Of a DNA stretch of 32,000 nucleotides, positions 1-17,779 are shown one piece after another. Where the stretch lies: assembly GCA_008080745.1 (NCBI GenBank), contig SHMX01000003.1, positions 450,001 through 482,000 on the forward strand, read 5' to 3'. Both the position numbers and the translations under genes were made by a program. Below the pieces are notes generated by a model. It was not told the origin of the DNA and did no database searches. It saw nothing but the letters and a program-made list of their open reading frames with translations. This DNA comes from Candidatus Thorarchaeota archaeon (lineage in GTDB: Archaea; Asgardarchaeota; Thorarchaeia; Thorarchaeales; Thorarchaeaceae). Position 1 is the stretch's first letter, and every line of letters begins with the position of its first letter.

Positions 1-1
1 C

Positions 2-982: not shown

Positions 983-1537
983 CTAGGATTTTCCTAAGAC
1001 TCGCTCTTTCATAGATTGATATTTTTTCTTGATGACAGACCACACACTACGATTCTTTGATTCGTTCGCTAAAGATGCCATGGGACACTTATCACCAAGA
1101 GGACATTGATCTTCGAATCCATCATGATCATGCAGAGCAGATGGTAGTGCAGTAGTGAGTAGATCGTTTTTGAATTCATTCATGATATCTGATGAAATAT
1201 GAGACCAATCGCGTTCCCGATATTTTTCCTGCATAAGAACAGACTGGACTTCCTCAAAGACTTTCTCTGCTAGAGTAGAATCATCCTCAGACAGGCCTAT
1301 AACAATGGAATGACCTTGGGGAGTAGTTTTTGAGAATCGCATCTCAGTATCGCCCATTCGTACGGACTCCAGCCGGAGACCCTCTGATAGAGTTGGGGGT
1401 ATGGTTTCAATGGCTGAAAGAAATCCTGATAACAATTCGGGATTTTTGAAAGCGGCTTTGCAAAAGTGGCCATAACATTTACTATAGATTGGTAGGCCTG
1501 ATTCAGTGTAGACCATTAGATATTCAAGACGAGTCAT
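983..1537 (-). CDS. Stand-alone longin/roadblock-like domain protein with Cys/His motifs
   Basis: N-terminal LMVYTESGLPIYSK and LLSGFLSAI pattern typical of Asgard longin-like domains. Also CYGHFC, HDHD...CPLGDKC and a basic C-terminal helix. Confidence 0.6.
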   Translation of the reverse strand: MTRLEYLMVYTESGLPIYSKCYGHFCKAAFKNPELLSGFLSAIETIPPTLSEGLRLESVRMGDTEMRFSKTTPQGHSIVIGLSEDDSTLAEKVFEEVQSVLMQEKYRERDWSHISSDIMNEFKNDLLTTALPSALHDHDGFEDQCPLGDKCPMASLANESKNRSVWSVIKKKYQSMKERVLGKS

Positions 1538-1624: not shown

Positions 1625-2794
1625 CTATTTTGGATAAAATTGCTTGAATACTTCGCGTTGAATAAGAAACCTCAGAATCTCTGCAGTTCCACCACCGATA
1701 GTCATTAATCGTGCATCTCTGAGAAAACGTTCTACTGGATATTCAGTAGTGTAACCAGATCCACCAAGTATCTGAAGTGCATCGTTTGTGATTTCAATTG
1801 CAGCTTCAGTAGTATAGAGTTTTGCAATAGATGCTTCACGAGTAATAGGTTCACCCCTATCGTACTTGCGAGCAGCCGCAAGAGTCAAAGCTCTACCAGC
1901 TTCAAGTTTCATTGACATATTTGCAATCTTGAAGCTTACTCCTTCAAACATTCTAATAGGTCTTCCAAACTGTTCACGCTCATTAGCATGTTTTACAGAT
2001 ACTTCGTATGGAGTGCGTCCATATCCAATAGCCTCACCAGCTATTGCTGTACGTTCACTATCCAATTCATCCATCAAAATTTTGAATCCATCTCCGGTTT
2101 CCCCTAGGAGTTTATCAGGACCAACTCGAACATCCTCCATCTTTAGCCAAGAAACACGAGCAGATTTCATCCCTAGTAGGTCATGGTCCTTGACAATACT
2201 GAAACCATCTGCTTCCGTATCTACAATAAAAGCAGACATCCCCTTCTTGGAATTGACAGAGGGGTCTGTGATTGCAAAACAAACCATATAGTCAGCTTGG
2301 CTTCCGTTAGTGATGAATCGTTTCTCTCCATTTATAACCCATTCATCTCCGTCCTTAACAGCCTGAGTCTTCATCCCAGCTGTATCAGAGCCAACATCAG
2401 GTTCGGTGATGCCTATACAACCGATTTTCTCTCCCTCCACAATCGGTTTTAGATATTTGATTTTTTGTTCTTCAGTACCAAACTTGCTTACTGGCATACC
2501 ATAGAGGGTAGTAGATGCCATTCTGGCCATGTCGAGACCACCATTTACTGCACTAATCTCCTCAGCCACGATTATCTCATAAGAGAGTCCCTTATGGGAG
2601 CCACCAACTGATTCTTCATGCAGTACACCCATGTATCCTGCAGACCCAATCTTTCTCAAGATATCCTTTGGATATGGGCCATGGTCAATTTCATCTGCAA
2701 TGGGGCCAATTTCACGTTCGCAGAATTCACGTACTTCTTCACGAAACTTGATTTCATCATCAGTCCAGAGAGCCGTATTTAGATAGTCTGTCAT
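1625..2794 (-). CDS. Acyl-CoA dehydrogenase (FAD-dependent)
   Basis: 389 aa with ITEPDVGSD, INGEKRFITNG, REQFGRPI and FLRDARLMTIGGGTAEI (catalytic Glu region) motifs. Confidence 0.95.
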   Translation of the reverse strand: MTDYLNTALWTDDEIKFREEVREFCEREIGPIADEIDHGPYPKDILRKIGSAGYMGVLHEESVGGSHKGLSYEIIVAEEISAVNGGLDMARMASTTLYGMPVSKFGTEEQKIKYLKPIVEGEKIGCIGITEPDVGSDTAGMKTQAVKDGDEWVINGEKRFITNGSQADYMVCFAITDPSVNSKKGMSAFIVDTEADGFSIVKDHDLLGMKSARVSWLKMEDVRVGPDKLLGETGDGFKILMDELDSERTAIAGEAIGYGRTPYEVSVKHANEREQFGRPIRMFEGVSFKIANMSMKLEAGRALTLAAARKYDRGEPITREASIAKLYTTEAAIEITNDALQILGGSGYTTEYPVERFLRDARLMTIGGGTAEILRFLIQREVFKQFYPK

Positions 2795-3374: not shown

Positions 3375-3695
3375 TCATTTTTCAGTGAAGTGAAACAGAC
3401 CATCACTACCCTTCTGGATTATCACAGAACAGCCAACCTCAAGAGAGGATATTGCATCCTTATCCCCATGACATAGGATTGTCGCACCACTAGAGGTTTC
3501 AATTAGAGCTAAAATGAGGGGTGGTTCAAAGCCTTCAGGAGGCATTTGGGAGATTGTATAGCTAAGGATTGTTCCTTCAGATCCCAAAGGAATCTCTTCT
3601 ATAATATCAATGGCTGGGCCACAATAAGGACAGAAACTCCTTGCAGGATAAATTGTTCTATTACATTCAGAGCATCGTGAGGCTATTTCTGTCAT
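3375..3695 (-). CDS. DUF35-family Zn-ribbon/OB-fold protein (thiolase partner)
   Basis: RCSECNRTIYPARSFCPYCG (2x CxxC) then OB-fold GTILSYT...PPEGF. Start moved to the Met at 3695 (MTEIASRC), which has a purine-rich upstream segment. Confidence 0.9.
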   Translation of the reverse strand: MTEIASRCSECNRTIYPARSFCPYCGPAIDIIEEIPLGSEGTILSYTISQMPPEGFEPPLILALIETSSGATILCHGDKDAISSLEVGCSVIIQKGSDGLFHFTEK

Positions 3696-3760
3696 ATAAT
3701 CCCCATTCTCAATGAAAACGCAACTACTGAAAAGCATTACGAGTAAGTGAAATATTAGAA

Positions 3761-4111
3761 TCAAGCAGAAGGTCTAGTCTTCAAGGTGCGAATAACAGAT
3801 TTGAGATGTTTCTTGATGAATTTTCGAAATTTAGGATCTTCAGATAGATAGATCATGGTGGAATCTTGCATTCCATCAATGTTACCATCGACTTCAACTG
3901 CATCACCCAGTTCGATTAAATCCCGTTTGAATATACCTTCAATTGCATGAGGAGAGAATCCTTCCTTTTTAAAGACTGGAAAGATTTGTCCTTTAGTTCC
4001 AGCGCCTTTTAGTTTTAGAAGAGAAAGAATTAGAAGCCAATGATGCCATGCAAGAGTATAGTTTTCTAAAAATCTCATGACTTCGGAGAGTGAGCGTGTC
4101 ACGGTTTTCAC
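3761..4111 (-). CDS. Hypothetical basic protein, possibly winged-helix fold
   Basis: 116 aa; GTG start with GAGTGAG upstream, 1 nt after the previous stop. Three helices then a beta wing (AVEVDG...TMIYLS). Confidence 0.6.
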   Translation of the reverse strand: MKTVTRSLSEVMRFLENYTLAWHHWLLILSLLKLKGAGTKGQIFPVFKKEGFSPHAIEGIFKRDLIELGDAVEVDGNIDGMQDSTMIYLSEDPKFRKFIKKHLKSVIRTLKTRPSA

Positions 4112-4112
4112 C

Positions 4113-5510
4113 TCACTCTTCAGCAGAAGAATCAGATTCTTCTCCTACTTCGTCTGTTTTGGATTCACCATCCGAATCATCAGGTGTTTCTTGTATAGCA
4201 TCCTTGATACTCTTTGGACGAATCTTATCATCCTTAATTTCAACAAGACCTATGTCAACAAATTTCTGAAGATTTCGTTTCAATAATACAGTTGGTACTC
4301 CCAGAGCTTGAGAGATATGTTGTAGAGGCAGCCAAGAATATTCTTTATCAGCAATAAGGAAGTATGCTTTGAATGCAGGTTCGTCTTCAGCTACTTGATA
4401 GAGCATATCCCAACGCGCTTTTAGTTCCTCAATCTGCTTATTTAGAGCAACTAATTCTGCCTCATGGGTATCATTAAGGCCCCGCTTGGAAGAGAGTTCA
4501 TCACTCATGGAAATAATTTTCCACTCAAGCTCTCCAACTTTTTCATTAAGACCTGCAATTTGTTGTTGATAAGTTTGAATAGTTTCATCTTTCTGTTCGA
4601 TTCGTTCTTCCAATTCAGAGATGGTACCAGTTAAACTAGCTACTTCCTTCATTTTCTCTTCATAGTCACTTGTTATATCTTTGGCATCTTCAAGAGAAGC
4701 GATTAACTCTTTTTGCTGTTTCAATTCAGATTCAGCTTCTCGAAGAGAACCCTTAAGGACAGAGATTTCATGTCCACGACCCTCCATTTGACCAGAGAGT
4801 TCAGAATAAAGATCTCTGAGTCGGTCCATATCACTTTCCATTTCGTCAATGATCTCTTCTTTCATTCGTAAGCGCTCTTCCATCTCCTTGGATTTTGCTC
4901 GCCATCTCCTTGCAGAAGACCTTTCTTGTTCCAGTTGTACGTCAAGCTCATTGACTCGGGCATATAATTGAATAATTTTACCTTGAAGAGAACTTGTGGA
5001 TCTGCCCACATTACGGATTGCTCCGCGGGATGCCTTTTCTAAGATATCTTTTGCAGATTCCTGTCCTTCTTGAATAGTATCGTAAATTGGTCCAAGCAAT
5101 TTTCCTGGATCTAAACCGGTTTCTAGTTCATCTTGTACTGTCTTAATTGCCTTTGTTGCAAAAACTCCCAATCCCATTGATTGGAATTTTTTCTTTAGAG
5201 ATTGCATCATAGTGCTTACTTGTTCCTGAACAAAGGGATCTGTGGCTTTGACCGTGTCCTCGATCGAGGCAAGAATATCAACGATTCTAAATTCGATTCG
5301 TTGGAAAGTTTCATCAATGATTGATGCTTCTTGCTCTTGAGTTACGGAATCATCGGGCTCCTTCTCATCGGTTTCTTCGGGTATAGGAAACGGAATGGTT
5401 TCTGTGGAACCCCCGATACTCCTTTTCATGGCTGCTTCCATGAGTCGTTTTGTTTCAGCTTCCAAATCTGGAATATCTGTTAGCTCAGAATCTCCGTTTT
5501 CTTCAGGCAA
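4113..5510 (-). CDS. Long coiled-coil protein with C-terminal winged-helix domain
   Basis: TTG start with GAGGTG RBS. About 200 aa of continuous heptad-like E/K/Q/L sequence, then LPLQHISQALGVPTVLLKRNLQKFVDIGLVEIKDDKI (wHTH). Acidic termini; no Walker A motif. Confidence 0.75.
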   Translation of the reverse strand: MPEENGDSELTDIPDLEAETKRLMEAAMKRSIGGSTETIPFPIPEETDEKEPDDSVTQEQEASIIDETFQRIEFRIVDILASIEDTVKATDPFVQEQVSTMMQSLKKKFQSMGLGVFATKAIKTVQDELETGLDPGKLLGPIYDTIQEGQESAKDILEKASRGAIRNVGRSTSSLQGKIIQLYARVNELDVQLEQERSSARRWRAKSKEMEERLRMKEEIIDEMESDMDRLRDLYSELSGQMEGRGHEISVLKGSLREAESELKQQKELIASLEDAKDITSDYEEKMKEVASLTGTISELEERIEQKDETIQTYQQQIAGLNEKVGELEWKIISMSDELSSKRGLNDTHEAELVALNKQIEELKARWDMLYQVAEDEPAFKAYFLIADKEYSWLPLQHISQALGVPTVLLKRNLQKFVDIGLVEIKDDKIRPKSIKDAIQETPDDSDGESKTDEVGEESDSSAEE

Positions 5511-5521
5511 CTATTAGCACC

Positions 5522-5890
5522 TCAAACTGCGACTCCAGGATGACCTAGTGCTATAAGCTGGGAAGAAGTTTCACGAATACCATCAGTGATTTTCGCAGCT
5601 TCTTGAATTCTATTCATGAGCTCTTTTCTGAATTGAATTGCTGTCAGTTCGCCACTATCGAGTCGTCGAGTGAGTTCACTCCGCTCTCTCTGAAGTTCTT
5701 CACGTCTGGCAACCAAACGCTGATATTCAGCAATTAGCTGGGTTATCTTCTCCTTTGATTCAGGAGTCTGTTCAACTTCTGACTTTTTGGGAGTGCGTTC
5801 TGGAGCTTCGACTCTCATTATTTCGCGACCTCGTACAACGGTCTTCTTTTCTTTCTTTTCTTTACGTCTCCATCTGTCGAATAATCCCAT
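5522..5890 (-). CDS. Small coiled-coil protein with basic amphipathic N-terminus and SHOCT/steadiness-box-like motif
   Basis: Start placed at MGLFDRWRRKEKKEKK (ATG 5890, GAGGTG upstream); RRLDSGELTAIQFRKEL motif. Confidence 0.65.
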   Translation of the reverse strand: MGLFDRWRRKEKKEKKTVVRGREIMRVEAPERTPKKSEVEQTPESKEKITQLIAEYQRLVARREELQRERSELTRRLDSGELTAIQFRKELMNRIQEAAKITDGIRETSSQLIALGHPGVAV

Positions 5891-5904
5891 TTGGATTTCC
5901 ACCT

Positions 5905-6465
5905 CTATTTCATAAATTCTTCTACTTCTTTAAGTCGTGATTCCAATTTCTCTCGCATCTGACTCGCGACCTCTGCTTTTTCATAGTACTCATCAGCACT
6001 AGCAGGATCGGTCATGGCCATCTCTTCAAATTCGGATTCCTTCTCAAAGAGTCTTGCTATCTTTAGCTTCAATTCATCAGTAACCCGCTCTAGTTCCTCA
6101 CGAGATTGGGTTTCTGAGGTATCTTCTTCGGTCGTGGATTCATCCTCAATTGAGTCAGTAATAACAACACTCGACTTACCTAGCTCGGATTCCTCCATGC
6201 CCATAATGTGAACCTTGATTCCCTGATTCAATCGTTTTTCAAGGGTTTCAAGTCTGCTCATAATGCCATCCATTGTATCATGCAATTTCTTGATGGCTAC
6301 TGTCTGACGATTTATCGTCTTGAATATCTCATCTGCAAATTTTTCGAATTCTAATCCGTATGTGAAACTATCGAGGGATTTTTTGATGCGGTCAATTTCA
6401 TCTATTAGTCGTACTCGTTCCTCTTCGCTAATGATACTCTTGGTTATATCACTCATATCTACCAT
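5905..6465 (-). CDS. Acidic coiled-coil protein
   Basis: 186 aa; two helical coiled-coil segments separated by an acidic linker. ATG directly follows the TAA of the GTPase gene. Confidence 0.65.
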   Translation of the reverse strand: MVDMSDITKSIISEEERVRLIDEIDRIKKSLDSFTYGLEFEKFADEIFKTINRQTVAIKKLHDTMDGIMSRLETLEKRLNQGIKVHIMGMEESELGKSSVVITDSIEDESTTEEDTSETQSREELERVTDELKLKIARLFEKESEFEEMAMTDPASADEYYEKAEVASQMREKLESRLKEVEEFMK

Positions 6466-7347
6466 TTAGTCCACCTCGATATCTCCCACTATATGAAAAT
6501 CAATCTCTTCAAAAGCCAGCATCCTAAGAAGTTCTAGCCATCTGTCACGAAAATCACGTTTATTTGCCTGCATACCGTATGCAGGGACTCCAAGCCGTTT
6601 GGAAACCTCCTCAGGAGATAGTGCTCCTTTCAGGTCCTGCTTATTCGCGACAGCAATTATTCTTGCATAAGGAAGCTCCGCTCTTAAGACCGGATACGCT
6701 ACACGTTTGGTCCATGATATATTATCCTTCGTGGAGTCACTTACAATGACGACCATGCTCCCTGAACGAATAATCTTCCCCCATTCCTGTACAAAACGAT
6801 CCTGACCACCGAGATCAAACATGCTGAAAACATATGGATCAAAATTTCCGCGTAATAATGCTTTATCACCGAAAAAGGTTGGTACATAATCCTGTGGTGG
6901 TCCTTGTGAGGGAAGAGTAGCTAGTTCTAGTAAAGTTGTTTTGCCTGTACCACCATGACCTGCCAGACAGACTTTCACAGGAATTCGTCCTACTATCTTA
7001 CGAAAGTGAGAACCAAAGGATGAGAAATCAGTTGATTTCCAAGCCCCACTCTCCAGCAAATCTTGATAGTCCTCCATGAATTTTGAAACTAGGCCCATAA
7101 GTGCCTCATGGACCTTTCTAATGGAGGCTTGTCGGTCCATTGTAACTATAAATTGGGTGTCGTGACTATTCATGTACATGTATCTATAACGTTCAATCTC
7201 CAGATTGTCTATTTTCCATTCTTGGAGCTTTTTCGCAGAGGAAGACACTAACATCATAACTGCGTTTGAATCTAAATCGATGTTTGGGATGATTATATCT
7301 TCAAATAGTGTTTCGCCATCTCGGAATATGTGGATTTCACGAATCAT
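6466..7347 (-). CDS. Longin-domain/small GTPase fusion (Arf-like Ras-superfamily)
   Basis: G1 GHGGTGKTT, G2 YVPT, G3 DLGGQ, G4 NKQD, G5 region MQAN. The N-terminal ~120 aa (MIREIHIFRDGETLFE...LVSKFMEDY) has a longin-like pattern. Confidence 0.85.
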   Translation of the reverse strand: MIREIHIFRDGETLFEDIIIPNIDLDSNAVMMLVSSSAKKLQEWKIDNLEIERYRYMYMNSHDTQFIVTMDRQASIRKVHEALMGLVSKFMEDYQDLLESGAWKSTDFSSFGSHFRKIVGRIPVKVCLAGHGGTGKTTLLELATLPSQGPPQDYVPTFFGDKALLRGNFDPYVFSMFDLGGQDRFVQEWGKIIRSGSMVVIVSDSTKDNISWTKRVAYPVLRAELPYARIIAVANKQDLKGALSPEEVSKRLGVPAYGMQANKRDFRDRWLELLRMLAFEEIDFHIVGDIEVD

Positions 7348-7458
7348 CTAGTAGTCACTCCGGCACCCGCATTGCATGATGACACACAGCTGCTCATCTA
7401 GGTCCCTAAACAAATCTACTCCAAATAGGAATTTGAGGGTATGTTGTTTATCATTCAT
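7348..7458 (-). CDS. Possible 36-aa ORF in frame with, and abutting, the GTPase gene
   Basis: My translation: MNDKQHTLKFLFGVDLFRDLDEQLCVIMQCGCRSDY*, with TAG immediately followed by the GTPase ATG. Below the ORF-track cutoff. Confidence 0.25.
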   Translation of the reverse strand: MNDKQHTLKFLFGVDLFRDLDEQLCVIMQCGCRSDY

Positions 7459-7534
7459 TATTGGGATTTTGAACATTTTTTGTATCACCGTGCTGAATCG
7501 TAATATTCTAACATTTCTCATTAATCATAATAAA

Positions 7535-7572
7535 GATAGGAGAAAGGGAGGATAAACCCCCTCTCAACTATC
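7535..7572 (-). terminator. Hairpin downstream of the giant surface-protein gene
   Basis: Minus strand GAGAGGGGG-8nt-CCCTTTCTC (9 bp with 2 G-U pairs that form only on this strand), flanked by GATAG/CTATC, then TTTATT. Confidence 0.6.
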
Positions 7573-7585
7573 TCAGTGGTAGGTT

Positions 7586-10500
7586 TTATTCTTCTAATTC
7601 GTCCTCCTCAGGTTCATCTAAGTCAGACTCTTCAGTATCGATTTCTGCAGAGGCTTCGTCCTCAGCTTCACTAGCGGTATCCTCTTCTTCGGACTCGGAC
7701 ACATCAGTGTCGGACTCGCTATCCTCGCTGGATACTTCTTCCTCGGCTGGTTCTTCTACCTCTTCGACTTCTTCTTCGGGAGTCTCTTCAATACCTTCCT
7801 CAGAAACCTCGGGTTCGGTAATGCTTTCATCTTCAGCTTCAATCTCAGCTTCACCCTCTATCGAGTCAGTTTCAGCATCATCTTCAGGAAGTTCAGCTTC
7901 TTCGTCACCCAAGTCATCCTCTGTAGACTCTGTTTCTTCGACTTCATCAATGTCCTCAGGAAGATCATCAGACTCAATATCTACCTCGTCAACCGTGATG
8001 GCATCAAGTTCTGCACTAAGTTCCTCCTCAATTGAGGGGCCAGTGTCAACAAAGTCTGTGCCTTCAGTTCCAATCTCGTCAAGTGCATCTAGTTCACCTA
8101 GAAGATCATCGGTCTCATCTGTGAGAAGATCTTCATAGGGCTCTTCGATGAACTCATCGATTACTGGAGCGGTAATGTCGAGATCAGCCAATCCAGGAGC
8201 TAGGATATCTGATACAACCATGCCCATGGTGGCAATACCTTCGACACTAGCAGGCTTACCATTCTCGATGTCACTGATTGCTCGGTTAATCTGTTTGATG
8301 TGGAATGGAACTCTCCATCTCTGAATAGCTACTACTGCCAAGCCTATTACAATGAATAGACCAGTCATTACACCGATAGTTGTCAGAGTTGAAACTGGTA
8401 CTCTAAAGCCAGTACCCAGAATGTCAACGGTTGGTTCAGAAACAGTCACACGAAGTGTGGATGTCTTATTCTGATACATCGGAGCGGATGCAGAGATACT
8501 TAGTTCATATGGAGCTGATTGGATAACACCAATCTGAGCTGTAGTCAATTGAATTGAGTAATGTGTTCCATTGAAGGTGAAGTCATCCAGATCAAAGGAG
8601 GTTACTGGAGTTGTCAGAGTCATCTCAAGACCAGATATTGTTGGAGTCATTGGTACATCTGATGATATATCCAAGAACTGCCAAGTAAGGAGGAAGTTCA
8701 TCCCGTCCTCTACAACCCGATCCTGTCCCGTCAATGAAGTGTCTGCATATATAATGAGAGTTGGATGGATGGTTATTGAGGTGTAGTTCTGCAGTGTTGC
8801 AGTGATGTTCAATGTGAACATACCAGGAATCTTACTGATTGGCATTAATGACGGATTGAAGTTCATCAGATAGGTTCCACTGGAGGATCGATAGGTTGCG
8901 GTGAATGGTTCACCAGCGTACATCATTGTGATGCTAGCTCCTGCAAGAGCACCAGTGAGGTCAACCTGAAGATCTGCTACTTCGAACTCCAGAATCACAT
9001 CAATACCTGTCACACCATATGTTGTAGTGTATATGTCCTCATTAGGTGTAAGAGAGGTGTCAACTGTTGCTATGGTAACAGGGATAACCAAATCAGGTAT
9101 AGTATAGTTCTCGTTATCTACCCGGACAATCAAGTTGTAACTGCCAGCGGGCACTTGAGAGGTATCTACTGTCACTGCATAATCGTTTGGAGATGGTAAG
9201 AAGGTCAAAGCATATTGAGTTGTGTAGCCACTCCAAATATAGTAGACATAGACATTCTCTAGAGTTTCAGTAACCAAGTAGATTCGGTTGACTTCAACCT
9301 GAAGGTCGAAAGTCTCGGACCACTTGTAAGTGGGAGAATCCTGAGTTGGTGCCACCTTTATACATTCACCCTCAATTGGGTCAATGTATAATGATGTCAT
9401 GTTCACGTTGTCAACATAGTTAGGCAATGTGTATGTGAAGGTTAGATTGTAGGCACCATAAGAGGCAGCAAACCAATCATCTGATGTTAGCTGAATCTCA
9501 AAAGTTCCATCACCATTATTGGTCATGACCCATGAGTAATCATCCATAGTGATTGTGACCTCAGCACCTAACCAAATGAAACCACCATGTAAGTCATCGT
9601 AGAGAGATGCTGTGATGGTGAAATCATCTGTCCAATTCACATGTCCAATCGGATCAATCACCAGTGAAGCATCTGTCTCTTGGACCAATACTATAACAGT
9701 AGTCAGTTGATGGCTTGCATATCCAGACTTCTCCATTGTGATTTGTATCACATAGACCGAACCTTGCACATTAGCATTCATATTCAGAGCCTTGGTATCA
9801 ACCGTAAAGGTGTACCAACCACCACCAAGATTGTACATTGTTGCAATCTCAGTGGAGGGGCTAAGTAATTGATACAGTTGACTATCAGGGTTGTCAATTG
9901 TTCCGCCATCCAGAGTGTTATTCCAATAGAAGGTAACATTGAACACATCTGCATAGAATTGTTCAAAGTATTGACTATCTAGGACTATCTCATTCGGTAC
10001 GGAATTAATTCTGACAAATACAGTTGTGATCGCAGTGGTTGCATCAGCCATTGTTGCAGTGATGGTAATTGCATAGAGGTCATCCTCCATAGGTACCGCA
10101 TCAAATGCATTCAGAGTGGTATTGTATATTCCACCAGCGTATGGATCTAGAGTACCTGATTGGTCAACCACGAACTCCATGTACCAATTGTATGCCACTG
10201 TAGCCCCAAGCACTGGGTCATTATCACGGGACTGATCCATTAAAGTAATCTCGATATCGAAGGTGTGAGTCCAATATGCCTCTAATGGGCTCTCAGCTGA
10301 ACCATATTCAGTCTGAATGAACAATGGAATCCTAACAGTGATATTCAGAAATACTTGGGCATCCTCGTGATTAGTCAATGACATAGTGATATCTAAACAG
10401 TAATCTCCAGACTCGATCAGAGTATTGACTTGGAATCGGTAGGTACCAGCCCCAAGATACTCAACTGTGACGGATTTGCTCCAATTATGCACATAGCTTG

Positions 10501-13500
10501 CACCAGCAAGCCCTGTACCATCAGTTCTATTGAATACGAGGTCAAAGTGAAGAGATTCACCCCAATCAACAACTACATCTCCACTACCGACTGGTTCAGG
10601 ATTTAGGTCAGTCTGTGCTGCAGAAACTACAAAATAGCTATCAGTCATCCAAGCAAACTCGTAGTTATTCTTACTGCATGTCACGTTGATATGCCAATTT
10701 CCAACAGGGAGAAGATCTTTTGAGAAATCATATTCATAGACTCCTATTGTCTGTGACATGATAGAGGTCTCAGTGAGATAGACTTGTCCAGTATCATTGT
10801 TAATCCAATACACAGTCACTGATATTCCTGTAAGGCCAGGATCAGTTGAGTTGGTACTGAATTGATATTCAAATGTGAACGAGTCAGCTGCTGGAGACCA
10901 TTCATAATTTGATGGACCTGTTAATACTACCTCCATTGGTACCTCGTCTATGACAAGGTCGACAATAATTGTCTGTCCAACGTAATTCTGTTTATTCAAG
11001 GTCACAGTAAGAGTGTAACTACCTACATTTAATCCATGAATTGCAGATGATGGTAGATCGTAGAAGACTCCATTCTCAGATAAGAATCCTGATCTTAGCA
11101 GAGTCGTACCACGCTTAATTGTCCATGAGTAGACCGAAAGATCTGTGACATTCACGTCATTGGTTATATCTTCAAGCCAGAAACTGTGGTCGGTATGTGT
11201 TTTGTAATAGTCGTTTATCAAATAGGTATCAAATGCATCTTGTGTTGTCTGTGCATTTAGAACTGTCAGGTAGATAGTCAGTTCTGTTGGGTCATCATAA
11301 TTTGCTGGATTGGCATGTGCCCAGACTTTGATGACATAAGGTGTATCCGATGCATTTAGCATCCAGTAATCAGTGTCAACAATCATTGTGAAATTGATTG
11401 CATCTTCTTTGATGACCCAATCATATGCACTTTGATTCCACGTACCAGTTGCCACAGGTGTTATACCCATGTATACAGTGTAATTCACCCAGTAGATATC
11501 ACTTGAAGGACTAATAGCACTTGTAGTTGTACCATCAAGGTCTCGATCAAAGAAACCAACAGTCCATGAGGCATTCTGACCCCATCGAACATTAAGGAAA
11601 TATGTCGTCGAATTCAGCTCTGTGTAACTATCAGCATAAGTTGGTGAGGCAATGGTCACGTTATTCCAGAACCACCAATCCTTATCACAAGTCGCATATT
11701 GAAGTGTTGCACTCTCCTCACCTGCAATAACTGATAGATTATATCCTACAGAATATGGTGTACTCATGTTAGCATGAATGAAAAAGAATGTAACATGACC
11801 TGTACTATTGGTAGTACCTTGAGCAACCAGGCCTCCACCGACTAAAGTCACATTCACTTGAGCTCCCTGTACAAAGGTAGTAGGACTTGTTCGAACGTTC
11901 ACGATCAAACGAGAAATTGGAATTTCAATCACTTGTTCGTAATATCCCTGTAAGTCTACGATTGATTCAGTATTATTTCTAGCCAGTGGGGTTTCATCAT
12001 AGTCATCAGCAATCCAAGCATCAATATTCCAAGTACCATTTACAACTCTGTAGAAGGTATAATTACCATTCTCATCGCTGTATTCAGTAATCTTGTAGAC
12101 ATCTTGGTCAACTGAGTTGTTGACAGTGATGGTAGCTCCTTCAATCATCTGTTCATCCCATGAGGGGAGATTGATTGTGAAGGTTACAAGCGGAATTTCC
12201 CAATAATATTCAGGAGTTCCACCAAATTCAGTATCAGAGATAGACCAGTTAGCAAATTCGAGAATATTGTCATAATTGTAAGATTCTACGGGTCCAGTAT
12301 ATCTTGCAAAGAAACTGTAGTCGTCTACTGGAATTCGGTAGAAATTCGCCCAACCAGTACTGTTGACTTCAGAAGTGAAGACATAGTTACTAGTCCCGTC
12401 ATTGGAACCATCAGTGATATTTGATGCTCTAATATAGAGGGTCTCATCAGCAGTCTTTGCAATGGTATCACCCATCAAATCTTCAGCATGAATGTCAAAG
12501 CTACCCATAGGCATGACAATAGTTACCGGAGTTACTGAACCAGTGATATCGTGGTTTGAATCGTTTCTAACCCAGACAGCTGTATAATCAGTAAAACCAC
12601 CTAGCCAGTTCTTTGCGTCAATACTAGTTTGAATCTCATAAGTTGCATTGTCGAGACCCTCGAACACAACTAGACCATTAGAATCAGTTGTATCTGTTCG
12701 GGTTCCACCCTGGTCGTCTGTCCAAAGAACGTGTGTGTTTGGATCATGTAGACTTACAGCAACGCCCTCTACTGGAATACCATCAACATCAACAACAGTG
12801 ATATCAAATTCAAACAGGTGTACTTCATCACCATATTCTGCAACTAACCTAGCTTGGTCAACATCAGAATGATAGGATGGAACCATCCATCCATATCCAG
12901 TATCGGAAGTTGGATTATAGGGTGCAGAAGTAGAAAATCTGCCTAGGTTGACAATACTAATGCTTGCATTGGAATTGATATGATACAGAGTCATTGAGGA
13001 CGATACCGGCCTGAATGCAGCACAGCCACCTGCAGGAATCTGAAGCTGGCCATCGTTGTAGCCGTCAATATCCACCAGTGCGTTTTCTTGAGCCACAATC
13101 ATAAACTTGTAAGAGTTAATACCCCACATTTTGAAGTCGGTGCCAAATCGATCTCCAGTAATAGTAGGCATCCAATCTCCAGCATCTCTTGCATTCGCTG
13201 GGTCATATACTCCTTCAACCATCAACATTGCTCCAGAATCACCACGGATGTGAGTCACATCTTCAGGATTAGTATCTGAGGCAACACCATGAGCAATTAG
13301 AGAAGAGCTGTTTGCCGCAACAGTGATAGTAGTCCATGAGGACCATCCAGATCCAGCATTGCGACGCCAGTCAACATCAACGGTAGAGTCTCCAAGATTT
13401 GTTACTCGTATCCAATCATTACCATTACCCATGTCAATGATGTAGAACTCCTCTCCAGCTAATTGACCATCTACTGTGGAATAGCATCCCCATATGTCTC

Positions 13501-14668
13501 GTGCAAATGCCGAATCAACGTCGCCTGCACGGAAAGATAGAAGATTGGTTGAATTAACCATTGAAATAACGTTGTAGTCAACTTGTCGCTTTGCTATGTA
13601 CTCACCTGCATCTAATACAGCAGGCCATTCTGTAACTGCAGAGCCATTATAGAATTCCCAAAGGGTGAAATCATCAGCAGCGCCAGTTGAATCCCATGCA
13701 TAAACTTCAGTGTTATCTTCCATTGCCTGAGCCCAATAAGTGCCCTCGTTTCGGTCATCAAATCCTTCAACTCCACCGAGGATAAACTCATGACCCACAC
13801 CATAACCAAGCTGGTCGACTCCGGGGAACCAATCGTTAATAGAAGGATTACTTCCTTCATCACCTTGACCCATATGTACTGATATTGGATAATTAGAATA
13901 AATGGCATAGAACCCATGGAAAAGCGAGTAAGAATAGGTACTTGGTTCGTATCGGGCTGCTTCAAGTTTGTCTAATGTTCCACTTGGAACATTACTTGGA
14001 TATACGCTACCAGATGAACCAGACCAACGAGCATCAAGATTTCGTGGATCATCCCATGAGTCTGTTGTGTCGTCCCACATCTCGATATAGTAATTGTTAC
14101 TATCGTGATATGAAATCATGCTGATTAATGAGAAAGTGTAACTCTTGTAGACGAAGGGATAGTAATCAGGATAACTAACTGTACCAACATCAATCTTGGC
14201 ATAATAGACATAGTAGTTCCAATCAAGTGTACCTTGAGTCATGTTGACTGAGAATGTAACTGTTGCTGATTCAATAAACTCAGCTGAATAATAAGTCACA
14301 TTCCAGACCTGGAAAGGTAACTGTGTCCATGTTTCAGAGCTGTTGTCATAGTAGAGTGCTCGGATGGATCCATCATAGCAGTGACCATTCTCAAAAGTCA
14401 GGTCGATATGTACCGGAACCAGAGTTCTGTCAGAAATACCTGGTTCTGTGAAATTGAAATACCTACGATAGATGTATGTCGAGTTCCACCAGTTTGCTAG
14501 ATCCTGTATTCCAGCAATCTCCATCTCTCCCTCTTGCATAAGCAACGGTGAATCCATTATGTAATCATCAGCAGAAGCTGTATTTGAAATAGGAGTACCA
14601 TTACTTGCTGGAAGGATGAGGAGTACTGCTAGAAAAATCATAATTGATAGTTTTAGTTTGGTATCCAT
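7586..14668 (-). CDS. Giant (2360 aa) single-pass cell-surface protein: signal peptide, DUF2341-like and IgGFc-binding-like regions, Ig-like repeats, TM helix, acidic cytoplasmic tail
   Basis: Signal peptide MDTKLKLSIMIFLAVLLILPA; WWNSTYIYRR..YVYYAK (DUF2341-like); four CarboxypepD_reg-like beta repeats; about ten ~100-aa Ig-like repeats; many NxS/T sequons; TM at ~8324-8390; ~245-aa cytoplasmic tail. Confidence 0.85.
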   Translation of the reverse strand: MDTKLKLSIMIFLAVLLILPASNGTPISNTASADDYIMDSPLLMQEGEMEIAGIQDLANWWNSTYIYRRYFNFTEPGISDRTLVPVHIDLTFENGHCYDGSIRALYYDNSSETWTQLPFQVWNVTYYSAEFIESATVTFSVNMTQGTLDWNYYVYYAKIDVGTVSYPDYYPFVYKSYTFSLISMISYHDSNNYYIEMWDDTTDSWDDPRNLDARWSGSSGSVYPSNVPSGTLDKLEAARYEPSTYSYSLFHGFYAIYSNYPISVHMGQGDEGSNPSINDWFPGVDQLGYGVGHEFILGGVEGFDDRNEGTYWAQAMEDNTEVYAWDSTGAADDFTLWEFYNGSAVTEWPAVLDAGEYIAKRQVDYNVISMVNSTNLLSFRAGDVDSAFARDIWGCYSTVDGQLAGEEFYIIDMGNGNDWIRVTNLGDSTVDVDWRRNAGSGWSSWTTITVAANSSSLIAHGVASDTNPEDVTHIRGDSGAMLMVEGVYDPANARDAGDWMPTITGDRFGTDFKMWGINSYKFMIVAQENALVDIDGYNDGQLQIPAGGCAAFRPVSSSMTLYHINSNASISIVNLGRFSTSAPYNPTSDTGYGWMVPSYHSDVDQARLVAEYGDEVHLFEFDITVVDVDGIPVEGVAVSLHDPNTHVLWTDDQGGTRTDTTDSNGLVVFEGLDNATYEIQTSIDAKNWLGGFTDYTAVWVRNDSNHDITGSVTPVTIVMPMGSFDIHAEDLMGDTIAKTADETLYIRASNITDGSNDGTSNYVFTSEVNSTGWANFYRIPVDDYSFFARYTGPVESYNYDNILEFANWSISDTEFGGTPEYYWEIPLVTFTINLPSWDEQMIEGATITVNNSVDQDVYKITEYSDENGNYTFYRVVNGTWNIDAWIADDYDETPLARNNTESIVDLQGYYEQVIEIPISRLIVNVRTSPTTFVQGAQVNVTLVGGGLVAQGTTNSTGHVTFFFIHANMSTPYSVGYNLSVIAGEESATLQYATCDKDWWFWNNVTIASPTYADSYTELNSTTYFLNVRWGQNASWTVGFFDRDLDGTTTSAISPSSDIYWVNYTVYMGITPVATGTWNQSAYDWVIKEDAINFTMIVDTDYWMLNASDTPYVIKVWAHANPANYDDPTELTIYLTVLNAQTTQDAFDTYLINDYYKTHTDHSFWLEDITNDVNVTDLSVYSWTIKRGTTLLRSGFLSENGVFYDLPSSAIHGLNVGSYTLTVTLNKQNYVGQTIIVDLVIDEVPMEVVLTGPSNYEWSPAADSFTFEYQFSTNSTDPGLTGISVTVYWINNDTGQVYLTETSIMSQTIGVYEYDFSKDLLPVGNWHINVTCSKNNYEFAWMTDSYFVVSAAQTDLNPEPVGSGDVVVDWGESLHFDLVFNRTDGTGLAGASYVHNWSKSVTVEYLGAGTYRFQVNTLIESGDYCLDITMSLTNHEDAQVFLNITVRIPLFIQTEYGSAESPLEAYWTHTFDIEITLMDQSRDNDPVLGATVAYNWYMEFVVDQSGTLDPYAGGIYNTTLNAFDAVPMEDDLYAITITATMADATTAITTVFVRINSVPNEIVLDSQYFEQFYADVFNVTFYWNNTLDGGTIDNPDSQLYQLLSPSTEIATMYNLGGGWYTFTVDTKALNMNANVQGSVYVIQITMEKSGYASHQLTTVIVLVQETDASLVIDPIGHVNWTDDFTITASLYDDLHGGFIWLGAEVTITMDDYSWVMTNNGDGTFEIQLTSDDWFAASYGAYNLTFTYTLPNYVDNVNMTSLYIDPIEGECIKVAPTQDSPTYKWSETFDLQVEVNRIYLVTETLENVYVYYIWSGYTTQYALTFLPSPNDYAVTVDTSQVPAGSYNLIVRVDNENYTIPDLVIPVTIATVDTSLTPNEDIYTTTYGVTGIDVILEFEVADLQVDLTGALAGASITMMYAGEPFTATYRSSSGTYLMNFNPSLMPISKIPGMFTLNITATLQNYTSITIHPTLIIYADTSLTGQDRVVEDGMNFLLTWQFLDISSDVPMTPTISGLEMTLTTPVTSFDLDDFTFNGTHYSIQLTTAQIGVIQSAPYELSISASAPMYQNKTSTLRVTVSEPTVDILGTGFRVPVSTLTTIGVMTGLFIVIGLAVVAIQRWRVPFHIKQINRAISDIENGKPASVEGIATMGMVVSDILAPGLADLDITAPVIDEFIEEPYEDLLTDETDDLLGELDALDEIGTEGTDFVDTGPSIEEELSAELDAITVDEVDIESDDLPEDIDEVEETESTEDDLGDEEAELPEDDAETDSIEGEAEIEAEDESITEPEVSEEGIEETPEEEVEEVEEPAEEEVSSEDSESDTDVSESEEEDTASEAEDEASAEIDTEESDLDEPEEDELEE

Positions 14669-15835
14669 TTACTCAACCCCCGCGACCATTTTGGTGGCCT
14701 GTGATGGATGGAACTGTCTAAGTACCTCCAAATAGTGCAACGCTTGACGACTTGGAATCTCTTCTGTATTGTACAAGGTTACAGTTCGATCAATTAGCCA
14801 CTCAGGATAGACCGTGATAACTTCAGGACTGCTCTTTAGCAGAACATGTTGTCTACCTTCTTCATCATTTACGGTAATAACAATACCAGCTTTTTCTAGT
14901 TCTTTTAGCAATTTGCGCAGGCTTCCCTGAGTTATGTCCAGCATACCAAGAAGATCTTCACCAACTTGTGGACCCGCTCTGAGAATCTGAAGCAGGTCAT
15001 AGACCTGAAAATCAAGTAGATACTTTGCTAATTCCTCAGCCTCTGCCCAAATAGTTTCTGAGAGGTCTTTCCGAAGTTTAGCGACATATTCGCGATGATA
15101 GCGCTTTGTAGTCTCCAAGAACTGTTTTGCAACAGTTGTTGGGATTTTACCAGCTTGTACTTTCCTTAAGGTCTCTACAGGTGTCTTCCTGAGAATAAGG
15201 ATTGCACGTGTGAGATAGACAACCTCTGAGGCAAGTCCCTCAACCCAACCTGTCGCAATGATACCCATCTTGACTAAAGGGCGTAGAACCATGTCCACAT
15301 CGATTTTCTTACCCACCTCTTCAAAGATCATTTGTTCCAGGTCCGCGTTTTGTACGGTACCGTTTCGAATCAGGGTCTGAAGAAGAGACCTACGTACAGG
15401 GTCACTTAGAATAGACGCTTGTCGTTGCTCTGGCGTCATCTGAGTGTACCGTGAAATCTGTTTGTATAACTTAGGAACCATCTTGACATACTCATCGTCC
15501 TCCAAATTCAAGAAGATCTGAGTGGCCATCTCAGGAAGAGCATCCTTGTACACATCTGGGTCCTCATCTGGACCAAGTACCAAGAACACCATAGATGGTT
15601 GTCCCTTCAAGTGCATGTTGAGCCCGCCGTAATATACTGCGAGCTTAAACTCATCAAAAGCAAGTGAATTAAATCCGGGCTTCTGTGACTCCTCGGTTTC
15701 ACCAAGAGTTGCAATACCATAGACCCGCATGGACGTAGTTGGGTCTAGACCGATTTGTAGACTCTTTGGCGTCTTGGAGGTAACCACAGGTCCCAGTTCA
15801 TCATCCCATTTTAGAACCGCGAGTCCTTCTGGCAT
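14669..15835 (-). CDS. uDENN/NPRL2-type longin domain plus two winged-helix domains
   Basis: LAVLKWDDELGPVVTSKTP matches the uDENN (F/W)(H/D)xxxGP start. wHTH-like segments ILSDPVRRSLLQTLIRNG and LLGMLDITQGSLRKLLKELEKAGIV. Start placed at Met15 (15835, GGAG upstream); the track start is 15877. Confidence 0.7.
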   Translation of the reverse strand: MPEGLAVLKWDDELGPVVTSKTPKSLQIGLDPTTSMRVYGIATLGETEESQKPGFNSLAFDEFKLAVYYGGLNMHLKGQPSMVFLVLGPDEDPDVYKDALPEMATQIFLNLEDDEYVKMVPKLYKQISRYTQMTPEQRQASILSDPVRRSLLQTLIRNGTVQNADLEQMIFEEVGKKIDVDMVLRPLVKMGIIATGWVEGLASEVVYLTRAILILRKTPVETLRKVQAGKIPTTVAKQFLETTKRYHREYVAKLRKDLSETIWAEAEELAKYLLDFQVYDLLQILRAGPQVGEDLLGMLDITQGSLRKLLKELEKAGIVITVNDEEGRQHVLLKSSPEVITVYPEWLIDRTVTLYNTEEIPSRQALHYLEVLRQFHPSQATKMVAGVE

Positions 15836-16071
15836 CGTTTTTTCTCCATTGTGATATCCGACAATATATGGAGTCATCTCTCGATAGAACTAAGGCCTAT
15901 TACGATAGCTGACCCCTTTAATTAAACCACAATTCTTTGTCCCTAGTGAATTATGAAGTGGTCTAACTGTTGTTCGTTCTGTGTTTCTTGAACAAATATT
16001 CCCTAATAAGAAAAATTCGTACGGATATTACAAAATGGAAATATGCTGATACTTTTACTAGATTATGGTAA

Positions 16072-17238
16072 CTAATTTTTACTCAGAAGTGTTACTAACA
16101 TGTTATTTCCAAAGCCGCCAATGTTATGGGTAAGTCCAATCTCAGGATCATCTACTTGAAGAGATGTAGGATACAATCCACGAAGTTGTAGAACGACATC
16201 TCTGATCTGTGCAATACCAGTAGCTCCAGTTGGATGACCACGAGCTTTGAGACCCCCACTTGGATTGACGGGCATGGCTCCACCAACCTCTGACGTTCCG
16301 TTTTTAATAGAGTCGATTGCCGCCCCTCTATCAGCCAGACCAAGGTCCTCCATGTTGACTAGTTCAAGAATAGAGAATGCATCATGAATCTCACAGACAT
16401 CAACGTTCTCGGGTTCGATTCCAGCCATGGTAAAGGCGAGATTGGCAGCATGAATCGTGGCATAGAAAGATGTTAGTGAGAGACGATGTTGAACAGCATG
16501 GTAATCAGTTCCATGTCCAATACCTATCACTCTGATTGCCTGATCTTTCAATCCTAATTGACGGACCATACTATCAGATGCAATAACAGCTGCAGCCGCC
16601 CCATCTGAAGTAGGACAACTATCATAGAGAGTTAGAGGATCTGCAATAATACGACTGGAGCTTACTTTCTCCACAGTCACTTCCTTCTGGAAGTGTGCGA
16701 GAGGATTCTTCGCCCCATTTCGATGTGCTTTAACAGGGACTAAGGATAGTTCATCACGAGTTAACCCATAATCGTGCATGTATCGCCTTGCGACCATAGC
16801 ACCTAGAGCTGCTGGTGTTGCTCCATAGCGAGTTTCGTTATCATAAGACATCATCTTTGCGAGAATTTTTGATGCAATACCACGTTTAACAGCGGACATC
16901 TTCTCAACACCGATCACCAATACCAATTCAGCAAGCCCGGATGCCACCATTGCATAACCGGTTTCAAACGCGCTGGATCCAGAAGATGGGCCAGTCTCAA
17001 CGCGAGTGGCTCCCGCAGGAACAAGACCTAGCCTGTCAGCAAGCAAGGTGGATAGATGACCCTTTCCAGTGAATTCATCGGGATTTTGAGAGCCTACGAT
17101 AATTCGATCAAAGGGATACTCCAGAGTCTGGGAATCCTCCAGTGCCTCGAAGGCGGCTTGTGTTGCCAAATCCGTAATTCCTTCTTCAAGCACCCCAAAA
17201 GGAGTCATTCCAACGCCAATTACATTCACATCAGGCAT
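16072..17238 (-). CDS. Thiolase-fold protein (archaeal/SCP2-type), atypical active site
   Basis: VIGVGMTPFG, SDGAAA, EIHDAF, NPSGGLKARGHPTGATG and HNIGGFG motifs; the usual E-x-x-C-x-S-G nucleophile motif reads ETGPSSG. Start placed at MPDVNV (17238). Confidence 0.9.
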   Translation of the reverse strand: MPDVNVIGVGMTPFGVLEEGITDLATQAAFEALEDSQTLEYPFDRIIVGSQNPDEFTGKGHLSTLLADRLGLVPAGATRVETGPSSGSSAFETGYAMVASGLAELVLVIGVEKMSAVKRGIASKILAKMMSYDNETRYGATPAALGAMVARRYMHDYGLTRDELSLVPVKAHRNGAKNPLAHFQKEVTVEKVSSSRIIADPLTLYDSCPTSDGAAAAVIASDSMVRQLGLKDQAIRVIGIGHGTDYHAVQHRLSLTSFYATIHAANLAFTMAGIEPENVDVCEIHDAFSILELVNMEDLGLADRGAAIDSIKNGTSEVGGAMPVNPSGGLKARGHPTGATGIAQIRDVVLQLRGLYPTSLQVDDPEIGLTHNIGGFGNNMLVTLLSKN

Positions 17239-17251
17239 ATGCATCCGACCT

Positions 17252-17779
17252 TTACTCAATCAGTATTAGCAAATCAGTAGGGGTGACCATTGAACCAATC
17301 TCAATGTTTACCTCTTTGACTACACCGTCCATTGGAGCCTTGAGTTCATTAAACATTTTCATGGCTTCTAAGATACAAACTGTCTGACCCCCTGAAACTG
17401 AATCTCCCGGAGATACATGAACCTCCGTGATTTTTCCAGGCATGGGAGGATAGACACCACCCTCAGCCTTTGGTCCGCCTTTAGATGCTGTGGGCGTGGG
17501 GGTAACACTCTCCTGACTTTTCAATCGACCCCATTCGAGCTCCCGAGACTCTCCATTGATCTCCAATTCTATCTTGGACCCAGACCGCTTCATTATATCA
17601 ATCTTGTAGTCGGAGGTGGTATCATTTGCGGTCCATGTTCCATCCTCATTTTTTATAGTCTTGATACTGTAACTCTGTTCACCGATCTTAACAATGAGGA
17701 GTCCTCCTTCATCAAGAGTCTTCACATCGACTTCGTATTTCCTATCATCTATCTTTGCTTCGTACTTTGGACTCATCAT
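17252..17779 (-). CDS. Stand-alone biotin carboxyl carrier protein
   Basis: EAMKM biotinylation motif, PPMPGKI, Pro/Ala/Thr linker. Start at 17779 overlaps the upstream stop (ATGA). Confidence 0.92.
   Translation of the reverse strand: MMSPKYEAKIDDRKYEVDVKTLDEGGLLIVKIGEQSYSIKTIKNEDGTWTANDTTSDYKIDIMKRSGSKIELEINGESRELEWGRLKSQESVTPTPTASKGGPKAEGGVYPPMPGKITEVHVSPGDSVSGGQTVCILEAMKMFNELKAPMDGVVKEVNIEIGSMVTPTDLLILIE

Follow-up and report, generated by a model that had tools for sequence, protein, structure and literature searches.

A gain- and loss-prone gene cassette of Thorarchaeota that probably combines a giant surface protein with a longin-Arf GTPase module

What do seven adjoining genes of a Thorarchaeota archaeon do together, when one of them encodes a giant surface protein and another a small GTPase? 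The genes are found on contig SHMX01000003.1 of the Candidatus Thorarchaeota assembly GCA_008080745.1, within a stretch of 32,000 nucleotides (nt) at positions 450,001 to 482,000 of the forward strand (hereafter, the window). They are seven open reading frames (ORFs), labeled A to G, which occupy region 3761-15877 and are all encoded on the minus strand. A first-pass annotation of this DNA described seven co-oriented genes in two tight runs, and the description is correct: the gaps are 0 nt between A and B, 0 between C and D, 2-14 between D and E, 11 between E and F, and 1 between F and G, with a single longer gap of 238 nt between B and C. The stop codon of A abuts the start codon of B, and the stop codon of C abuts the start codon of D. 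On the basis of the evidence set out below, we read the cassette as an apparently undescribed membrane-to-GTPase switch module, which would be longin-regulated and wired to a giant surface protein. We consider it fairly probable that A-G form a discrete, gain- and loss-prone cassette in which a transmembrane (TM) surface protein is combined with a cytoplasmic small-GTPase switch module. Outside the window, the prefixes f, g, G, and L denote GTDB families, genera, genomes, and loci, respectively, f1 being the family of the source genome.

The seven genes are one insertion/deletion block, because the thiolase-like and DUF35 genes that flank it adjoin each other at two empty sites, and its borders are exactly those drawn in the first-pass annotation. 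The full A-B-C-D-E-F-G order is present in 11 genomes from 10 genera of one GTDB family, and contig ends cut the order in four more. Across the full-order genomes, B is 30-50% identical and F is 35-43% identical. Four family members have no A orthologue, and the B and C orthologues are also missing from them. In genomes G006 and G010, 112 and 210 nt, respectively, separate the thiolase-like gene from its immediate neighbor, the DUF35 gene, such that the cassette interrupts a row of thiolase-like, DUF35, and 389-amino acid (aa) protein genes (window positions 16072-17259, 3375-3764, and 1625-2794, respectively; L068 and L069). Since an empty-site genome and a block-bearing one belong to the same genus, the gain or loss of the block is recent. 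The hairpin that had been claimed for the 238-nt gap is real, with a folding energy of -22.2 kcal/mol (z = -3.5) and none of 200 shuffles being equally stable; it probably acts as an attenuator or terminator that separates the A-B run from the C-G run.

Beyond the family, 37 further loci were fetched from other GTDB families of the phylum, with C homologues as one starting point and A homologues, in a separate search, as the other. Genomically, A is tied both to C-like GTPases, to which it is adjacent in many families, and to B-like giants, to which it is adjacent in several families and fused in Lokiarchaeota. A C-type longin-GTPase gene comes immediately after A in f7, f8, f13, f15, f19, and f2 and before it in f12; operons of the A-C-E(-F) type are present in seven or more other Asgard families. 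A homologue of E comes after C in f7, f13, and f19 (the GTPase-then-E order is found in at least five Asgard families) and after A in f6; matches to a hidden Markov model (HMM) of E lie after C at L031, L032, L035, L036, L048, and L050, and after A at L061. An F-like gene, encoding a coiled coil and winged helix (wH), is present after C/E in f13 and f8. The source genome harbors a second, paralogous operon at C1:69398-72196 (L051), in which the gene of an A-like protein of 371 aa overlaps that of a 286-aa longin-GTPase and is followed by that of a 211-aa coiled coil. In at least 13 relatives, too, the genes of this paralogous A-C pair adjoin each other.

A third A paralogue (379 aa; G000:C1:343153-348759, L052) is located approximately 3 kb from the gene of a 529-aa protein with a C-like GTPase domain, and genes on the opposite strand separate the two. 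In two relatives (L065 and L066), an A paralogue lies 0.5-1.4 kb from the gene of a longin-GTPase fusion of 395-560 aa. In the sister family, genome G025 has an extra gene between F and G in a C-D-E-F-G run (L049:11420-12952), which encodes a 510-aa protein with an N-terminus matching the longin domain of A; A is located elsewhere in this genome, directly after a B-like gene (L030).

Protein B had been annotated as a TM surface protein of 2360 aa, and it indeed has a signal peptide, one TM helix, and an acidic tail. Asp and Glu make up 42% of the 245 residues of the cytoplasmic tail. The ectodomain contains 47 N-x-S/T sequons versus 23.9 ± 4.2 in composition-matched shuffles, and the tail contains none. 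Because of this excess in the ectodomain and its absence from the tail, the ectodomain is probably N-glycosylated and extracellular. No PDB sequence matches the N-terminal 600 residues of B at E ≤ 1. The juxtamembrane segment has the consensus (R/Q)RW(R/K)(I/V)P(Y/F)(Q/H)IKQI(N/D)xA...IE..K, which is almost invariant in 15 orthologues, the ectodomains of which are only 30-50% identical. Tandem duplications are found at L019 (G020) and L017 (G011), with an A-B-A-B-C order in one and two B copies in the other; the two B copies of the duplicated genome are 30% identical over the ectodomain. These cassette duplications suggest diversification of the surface protein.

A-family genes adjoin genes of giant proteins with a signal peptide and a C-terminal TM helix in f2, f3, f9, and f13, and in several of the pairs the gap is 0 nt or the stop codon overlaps the next start codon. 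A juxtamembrane motif of the same pattern as that of B is present in these giants. An HMM of the B C-terminus gives no match in the giants of f3, f9, and f13, the relation of which to B is a shared motif seen by eye. The two proteins are also found fused. Among 1.8 billion representative proteins searched, eight giants, the longest of 2548 aa, carry the full A module after the TM and juxtamembrane helix, and at least two of the eight are labeled Lokiarchaeota or Promethearchaeota. The last ~370 residues before the A module, which comprise the membrane-proximal ectodomain, the TM helix, and the juxtamembrane helix, show homology to the corresponding part of B (hhalign 98.7%, E 3.4e-16, 372 columns); this homology is established by profile comparison only, direct BLASTP of the B tail against the Lokiarchaeota fusions not being significant. 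A fission counterpart occurs in one f9 genome, where the giant ends after the B-homologous segment and a separate A gene overlaps its stop codon. Beside two of the fusion genes lie genes of longin- or roadblock-fused small GTPases of a different subfamily, encoded on the opposite strand. At L034, a gene encoding a 651-aa protein with two tandem Arf-type G domains (L034:5733-7688) is located just upstream of a Lokiarchaeota giant::A fusion gene, from which it is transcribed divergently, and two more longin- or roadblock-GTPase genes are downstream of it.

Protein A is modeled with a confident fold as a cytoplasmic protein consisting of a longin domain and tandem winged helices. The AlphaFold2 (AF2) model, calculated from a 66-sequence alignment, has a predicted local distance difference test score (pLDDT) of 92.6 and a predicted template modeling score (pTM) of 0.87. 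A helical linker is positioned between wH1 and wH2, which share homology (hhalign 97.4%), and C-terminal helices follow wH2. The N-terminal motif of the protein is MPEGLAVLKWDDELGP. In a search of 48,161 PDB representatives by a method independent of Foldseek, the top match is human NPRL2 (8fw5_B; Z 11.3, rmsd 2.8 Å, 122 residues aligned), followed by a Lokiarchaeota roadblock-longin protein (Z 11.2) and yeast Npr2 (8adl_S; Z 10.8). Lst4, DENND1A, FNIP2, FLCN, and C9orf72 align with Z of 8.8-9.8 (9.6 for DENND1 and 8.8 for C9orf72), and the margin of NPRL2 over other longins, which score 9-10, is ~1-1.5 Z. Thus, of the earlier description of A as a uDENN-like longin with two winged helices, the longin and both winged helices stand, whereas NPRL2/Npr2 (Z 11.3 and 10.8) is a better likeness than uDENN (9.6 for DENND1). 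In the ESM Atlas, the Asgard clusters to which A belongs score a template modeling (TM) score of 0.86, and the nearest named clusters are eukaryotic NPR2 families, which align 207 and 190 residues of A (spans 1-337 and 3-378), in the longin as well as the winged-helix parts, with TM scores of only 0.38 and 0.31. Full-length Foldseek alignments of A to NPRL3/NPRL2 have TM scores of 0.24-0.26. No Pfam longin family matches A by sequence.

Among the 66 A-family members, W10 is conserved in 62, D11 in 54, G15 in 62, P23 in 65, and R216 in 64, and R286 is also conserved. The spacing of W10-D11-x3-G15-P16 equals that of W33-D34...G38-P39 in C9orf72, with P16 being present in 16 of the 66 members only. 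The WD...GP motif of C9orf72 is described as essential, conserved, and specific to longins of the GTPase-activating protein (GAP) type (2025 survey, PMC12290439). A bears the WD...G(P) motif of a GAP-type longin and may act as a GAP, a guanine nucleotide exchange factor (GEF), or only an adaptor.

Protein C had been claimed to be a longin-GTPase, and both parts are recognized, the longin domain by its superposition on that of VAMP7 (Z 16.1, rmsd 2.1 Å, 116 residues aligned) and the G domain by its match to Pfam Arf (PF00025; 47.7 bits, cut-off 22.3). In the AF2 model (pLDDT 89.4), the G domain aligns to Arf6 with a Z of 19.9. The best 60 of 72 PDB sequence matches are all Arf/Arl/ArfR, the best being the Asgard GerdArfR (9.4e-11). 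Residues K125, G130, G135, K136, T157, G181, Q182, N235, K236, and D238 are invariant in 30 C homologues. C looks like an active GTPase because the P-loop, the switch-I Thr, DxxGQ, and NKQD show no variation across these homologues. R3 and R72 are conserved in its longin domain. The N-terminal amphipathic helix of Arf, which in eukaryotic Arf proteins is myristoylated at Gly2, is missing from C, and the longin domain (residues 1-120) is in its place. Gtr1_RagA gives no match for C at E ≤ 1, and the extra domain of C is N-terminal and has a longin topology, unlike the C-terminal roadblock of Rag.

A longin-longin interface between A and C had been proposed, and the predicted complex lends it weak support. 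The interface score (ipSAE) is 0.47 (0.45-0.48 in three runs), whereas the highest-scoring of three controls reaches 0.01. At least 77% of the contacts are shared between runs, with a partner pLDDT of no less than 83. On calibration, 58 of 80 solved complexes reached the mark, as did 2 of 110 mismatched pairs. The pass of A and C is a weak one, because at ipSAE ≤ 0.60 the mark is reached by only 7 of the 80 solved complexes and by both passing mismatches. It may also reflect likeness and not binding, since solved longin-GTPase complexes exist.

Protein E was described as a basic-amphipathic helical protein, which agrees with its conserved MG start, its amphipathic or polybasic N-terminus, and its helical hairpin. 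The N-terminus, MGLFDRWRRKEKKEKK, has a conserved Gly2 and is hydrophobic and polybasic before the hairpin begins. Ten of 12 E homologues from six families start with MG, and G2, L56, and G84 are conserved in the alignment. The N-termini are amphipathic in the f7, f19, and f6 homologues (hydrophobic moment 0.52-0.63) and otherwise hydrophobic and polybasic, with the conserved hairpin after them. Protein F has an acidic N-terminus, a long coiled coil (residues ~165-370), and a probable C-terminal winged helix (residues ~372-450). The coiled coil gives only weak coiled-coil/SMC-like matches; the winged helix-turn-helix (wHTH) match is sub-threshold in the window protein (E ~0.1), and is 1.8e-4/1.4e-3 in the distant L035 homologue. 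Compared with the winged helices of A, the C-terminus of F gives hhalign values of no more than 11-37%. For D, an acidic protein that had been called a coiled coil, there are likewise only weak matches to coiled-coil families. In the ESM Atlas, E and F match unnamed Asgard clusters only. Orthologues of D and G are not found beyond f1 and the sister family (G025), those of G being 47-74% identical. G has no Pfam match and no detectable family or fold, and its earlier assignment as a small winged helix-like protein finds no support: Atlas features are ≤0.90 with mixed families, and hhalign to the winged helices of A gives 2.6-9.4%.

How, then, might the parts work together? We propose that A is docked on the cytoplasmic tail of B or kept close to it. 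Its longin domain would pair with that of C to form a heterodimeric platform, as in NPRL2-NPRL3, FLCN-FNIP, and C9orf72-SMCR8, and the platform would set the nucleotide state of the Arf-like domain of C as a GAP or GEF. E would anchor the assembly to the membrane via its MG-basic or amphipathic N-terminus, much as LAMTOR1/Ego1 does, and F, joined by D and G in the source lineage, would provide scaffolds or effectors. The output, on which we can only speculate, could be local remodeling where B engages a ligand or a partner cell. The roles put forward in the first-pass annotation, namely adhesion-site assembly, protrusions, membrane trafficking, and filamentous tethers, are likewise conjectural. 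The link between the surface protein, the longin protein, and the longin-GTPase, which the first-pass annotation had suggested, gains support from the insertion/deletion block, from the A-C-E(-F) and giant-A neighborhoods, and from the fusions; the predicted A-C complex supports it only weakly.

A number of observations weigh against this proposal. Within the family, the unrelated flanking genes (the thiolase-like gene and two others upstream, the DUF35 gene and three others downstream) are as syntenic as the cassette. The gene-order comparison across Thorarchaeia that had been suggested therefore finds the order conserved but not specifically so, and within-family synteny is discounted as specific evidence, the flanking metabolic genes being equally conserved. 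Genus g3 has a reduced A-C-E-G version that lacks B, D, and F; the GTPase part therefore does not require B. The 238-nt gap and its hairpin divide the block into A-B and C-G. In f20 (L042, L043, L046, and L047), the gene upstream of the C homologues is not A but that of a conserved protein of 620-640 aa, which may be an alternative partner. The GTPases beside the Lokiarchaeota fusions are only 14-15% identical to C and are encoded on the opposite strand. As for A, Pfam NPR2 (PF06218) gives no match at E ≤ 1 and is absent among the 25 most-matched families listed for the 66 A-family members (best 25 of 79, E ≤ 0.1). At no position of its residues 1-132 do half or more of the 66 sequences have Arg, position 13 being Arg in 30 of the 66 and Glu in the window protein. 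The longin domain of A is thus without a conserved arginine finger, and GAP activity is not implied. Finally, wH2 of A is similar to DNA-binding domains of the ArsR type, aligning to SmtB, HlyU, CzrA, and SqrR with Z of 8.8-9.3 and 18-23% identity.

The genomic observations among these suit an account in which there is no single system: a real A-C-E(-F) GTPase operon would lie beside an unrelated surface-protein gene, with D and G being lineage-specific and the order being kept by descent. The equal synteny of unrelated flanking genes and the hairpin and gap between B and C agree with it, although A is translationally coupled to B with a 0-nt gap and gain or loss affects the seven genes together, as a single block at a single site. 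Similarly, the g3 version without B, D, and F, the confinement of D and G to f1 and the sister family, and the many distant A-C operons without a giant gene are to be set against the A-family genes that adjoin giants in f2, f3, f9, and f13 and against the B homologues that are fused to A in Lokiarchaeota. We regard this account as unlikely.

It is more improbable still that A is a winged-helix transcription factor of the ArsR/MarR type, in which an N-terminal sensor would regulate the neighboring giant and GTPase genes. Regulators are often encoded near their targets, and many A-family members are publicly annotated as "ArsR family transcriptional regulator", a label that arises because wH2 alone gives sub-threshold ArsR-type matches (HTH_5/HTH_20 at 16-18 bits for the window protein, below the Pfam cut-offs of 22-27). 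HTH_20 is matched by 11 of the 66 members (best 2e-8), the PDB chains matched by the A profile are all of the ArsR type (best E 1.1e-4), and wH2 superposes on the wHTH fold of Rv0081, CzrA, SmtB, and BigR with Z of 8.8-9.3 over ~75-88 residues. However, the winged helices and recognition helices of A are not basic (median net charge -1, and -11 for whole proteins), and in NPRL2/3 and ESCRT-II winged helices serve protein contacts. Moreover, the N-terminal domain of A has a longin fold that most resembles those of the GTPase regulators NPRL2/Npr2, its predicted complex with C is weakly positive, and in eight proteins the entire A module is fused behind the TM helix of a giant surface protein.

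An Arf-type membrane-remodeling or trafficking device, in which C recruits coiled-coil coats or tethers for membrane bending and B is a cargo as opposed to a signal receiver, would make use of the Arf family membership of the G domain of C by sequence and fold, of the Arf-like MG-amphipathic N-terminus on E that is missing on C, and of the coiled-coil proteins later in the operon. To our knowledge, internal membranes are not known in Thorarchaeota. While some Asgard Arfs associate with membranes (PMC11914678), the cassette has no coat, adaptor, or SNARE-like protein, and we find this account the least credible.

Returning to the proposed switch module, several known systems resemble it in part. 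In GATOR1/SEACIT, NPRL2-NPRL3 acts on Rag/Gtr; the top structure matches of A and its nearest named Atlas clusters are NPRL2/Npr2, and a second longin for pairing is available, here on the GTPase C itself. By analogy with the LAMTOR1/Ego1 anchor of Ragulator/EGO, the small, MG-initiated, helical E could anchor to the membrane. In contrast to GATOR1, A has no Pfam NPR2 match or conserved arginine finger, the cassette has no counterpart of DEPDC5 or NPRL3, and it is coupled to a giant surface protein and not to a lysosomal nutrient-sensing scaffold; in contrast to Rag/Gtr, C is an Arf family member with an N-terminal longin domain and not a Rag with a C-terminal roadblock. The longin-DENN complex C9orf72-SMCR8(-WDR41), a GAP for Arf GTPases, shares the W-D-x-x-x-G-P spacing of A, and the neighboring GTPase C is of the Arf family. 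However, A harbors winged helices and helical linkers instead of a DENN domain, the Pro of the GP pair is found in 16 of 66 A-family members, the Z of 8.8 is below that of NPRL2, and no SMCR8-like arginine-finger partner is identified. The bacterial MglA-MglB and actinobacterial conservon (CvnA-D) operons also pair a small Ras-superfamily GTPase with regulators of the roadblock/longin type, and the conservon includes a membrane sensor. They differ in that the cassette encodes an Arf-like GTPase with a catalytic Gln and a longin-wH regulator in place of a roadblock dimer, and, relative to the conservon, it has no histidine kinase and its membrane component is a single-TM giant glycoprotein.

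Coordinates of the cassette genes, their domains, and the intergenic hairpin in the window (nt, window numbering; residues refer to the encoded protein)
Feature	Position (nt)	Residues	Strand	Description
Gene A	14669-15835		-	388 aa from the ATG used by public gene calls; longer ORF to 15877
A longin domain	15440-15835	1-132	-	AF2 model
A wH1	15185-15433	135-217	-	AF2 model
A wH2	14810-15010	276-342	-	AF2 model
Gene B	7586-14668		-	2360 aa, type-I surface protein
B signal peptide	~14597-14668		-	hydropathy
B ectodomain			-	~2070 aa; Ig/prealbumin-like modules, sub-threshold Pfam CarboxypepD_reg/SdrD_B/SpaA matches
B TM helix	8324-8386	~2095-2115	-	hydropathy, single TM
B juxtamembrane motif	8189-8323	2116-2160	-	QRWRVPFHIKQINRAISDIENGK; conserved in 15/15 orthologues
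B acidic tail	7589-8188		-	after the juxtamembrane motif
RNA hairpin	7533-7574		-	just 3' of the B stop codon, then U-rich tract
Gene C	6466-7347		-	293 aa, longin domain + Arf-family G domain
C longin domain	6988-7347	1-120	-	structure comparison
C Arf-family G domain	6502-6987	121-282	-	catalytic Gln (DLGGQ), NKQD
Gene D	5905-6465		-	186 aa, acidic helical or coiled-coil protein
Gene E	5522-5890		-	122 aa from ATG; alternative GTG start at 5902
Gene F	4113-5510		-	465 aa, coiled coil + probable C-terminal winged helix
Gene G	3761-4102/4111		-	~113-116 aa, last cassette gene, fold not assigned

Other candidate assignments of the locus were tried and rejected. No direct or inverted repeats of at least 9 nt are found between the two cassette ends, and a mobile element with borders marked by such terminal repeats is therefore rejected. 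Among known defense systems, PADLOC gave only generic winged-helix (Csa3) and coiled-coil (JetC/LmuB) matches. The DUF35 gene (3375-3764) is not a cassette member, as it stays beside the thiolase-like gene at the empty sites. Downstream of the cassette, the gene of a stand-alone longin-like protein (window 983-1537) is syntenic in many relatives; it is kept in some genomes and missing from the empty-site loci examined. The only sequencing runs found to contain window DNA are two marine-sediment metagenome DNA runs, which may be its source sample, and no RNA data set is among them.

Small GTPases and proteins of the longin or roadblock type number in the dozens in Asgard genomes. The protein types to which A and C belong are part of the published catalogue of Asgard eukaryotic signature proteins (ESPs): "NPRL2-like" longin proteins (Liu et al., bioRxiv 10.1101/2020.10.19.343400), FLCN/SMCR8-type longins with a GP motif (PMC12290439), and longin- or roadblock-fused Arf/Rag-like GTPases (PMC10933270, PMC11914678). 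According to these papers, the majority of ESP genes, like the GTPase genes of MK-D1, do not share conserved operons with genes for longin or roadblock proteins. Since the GTPase, longin, and roadblock genes generally lie outside operons, regulators cannot be matched to GTPases (PMC10933270); which GTPases partner the GAP-type Asgard longins is a question asked in PMC12290439. The first-pass annotation did not recognize the gene set as a described operon, and in the literature searched, which lacks some journals, no description of the A-C-E-F operon, its link to a giant surface protein, or the giant::A fusion was found.

The cassette and its relatives supply such a regulator-GTPase match, in the form of an NPRL2/C9orf72-like longin, a longin-Arf GTPase, a candidate anchor, a coiled coil, and a surface protein. 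The cytoplasmic parts are all small soluble proteins suited to expression, binding, and GTPase assays, and the fused giant::A forms fall in a phylum with cultured members. A bolder and tentative extension, to which we give rather less than an even chance, is that these genes represent a widespread Asgard outside-in device, in which an NPRL2/C9orf72-type longin, contained in or recruited to the cytoplasmic tail of a giant receptor, pairs with the longin domain of an Arf-family GTPase and switches it at the membrane, with a LAMTOR1-like anchor and coiled-coil effectors, and which would be a prokaryotic forerunner of the GATOR1/FLCN/CSW GAP complexes and of the Rag-Ragulator logic. The locus is of high interest for the cell biology of the Asgards, the closest prokaryotic relatives of eukaryotes. 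If the proposal is true, longin-based GTPase regulation would have been wired to the cell surface before eukaryotes arose, which would bear on the origin of the Rag and Arf regulatory complexes.

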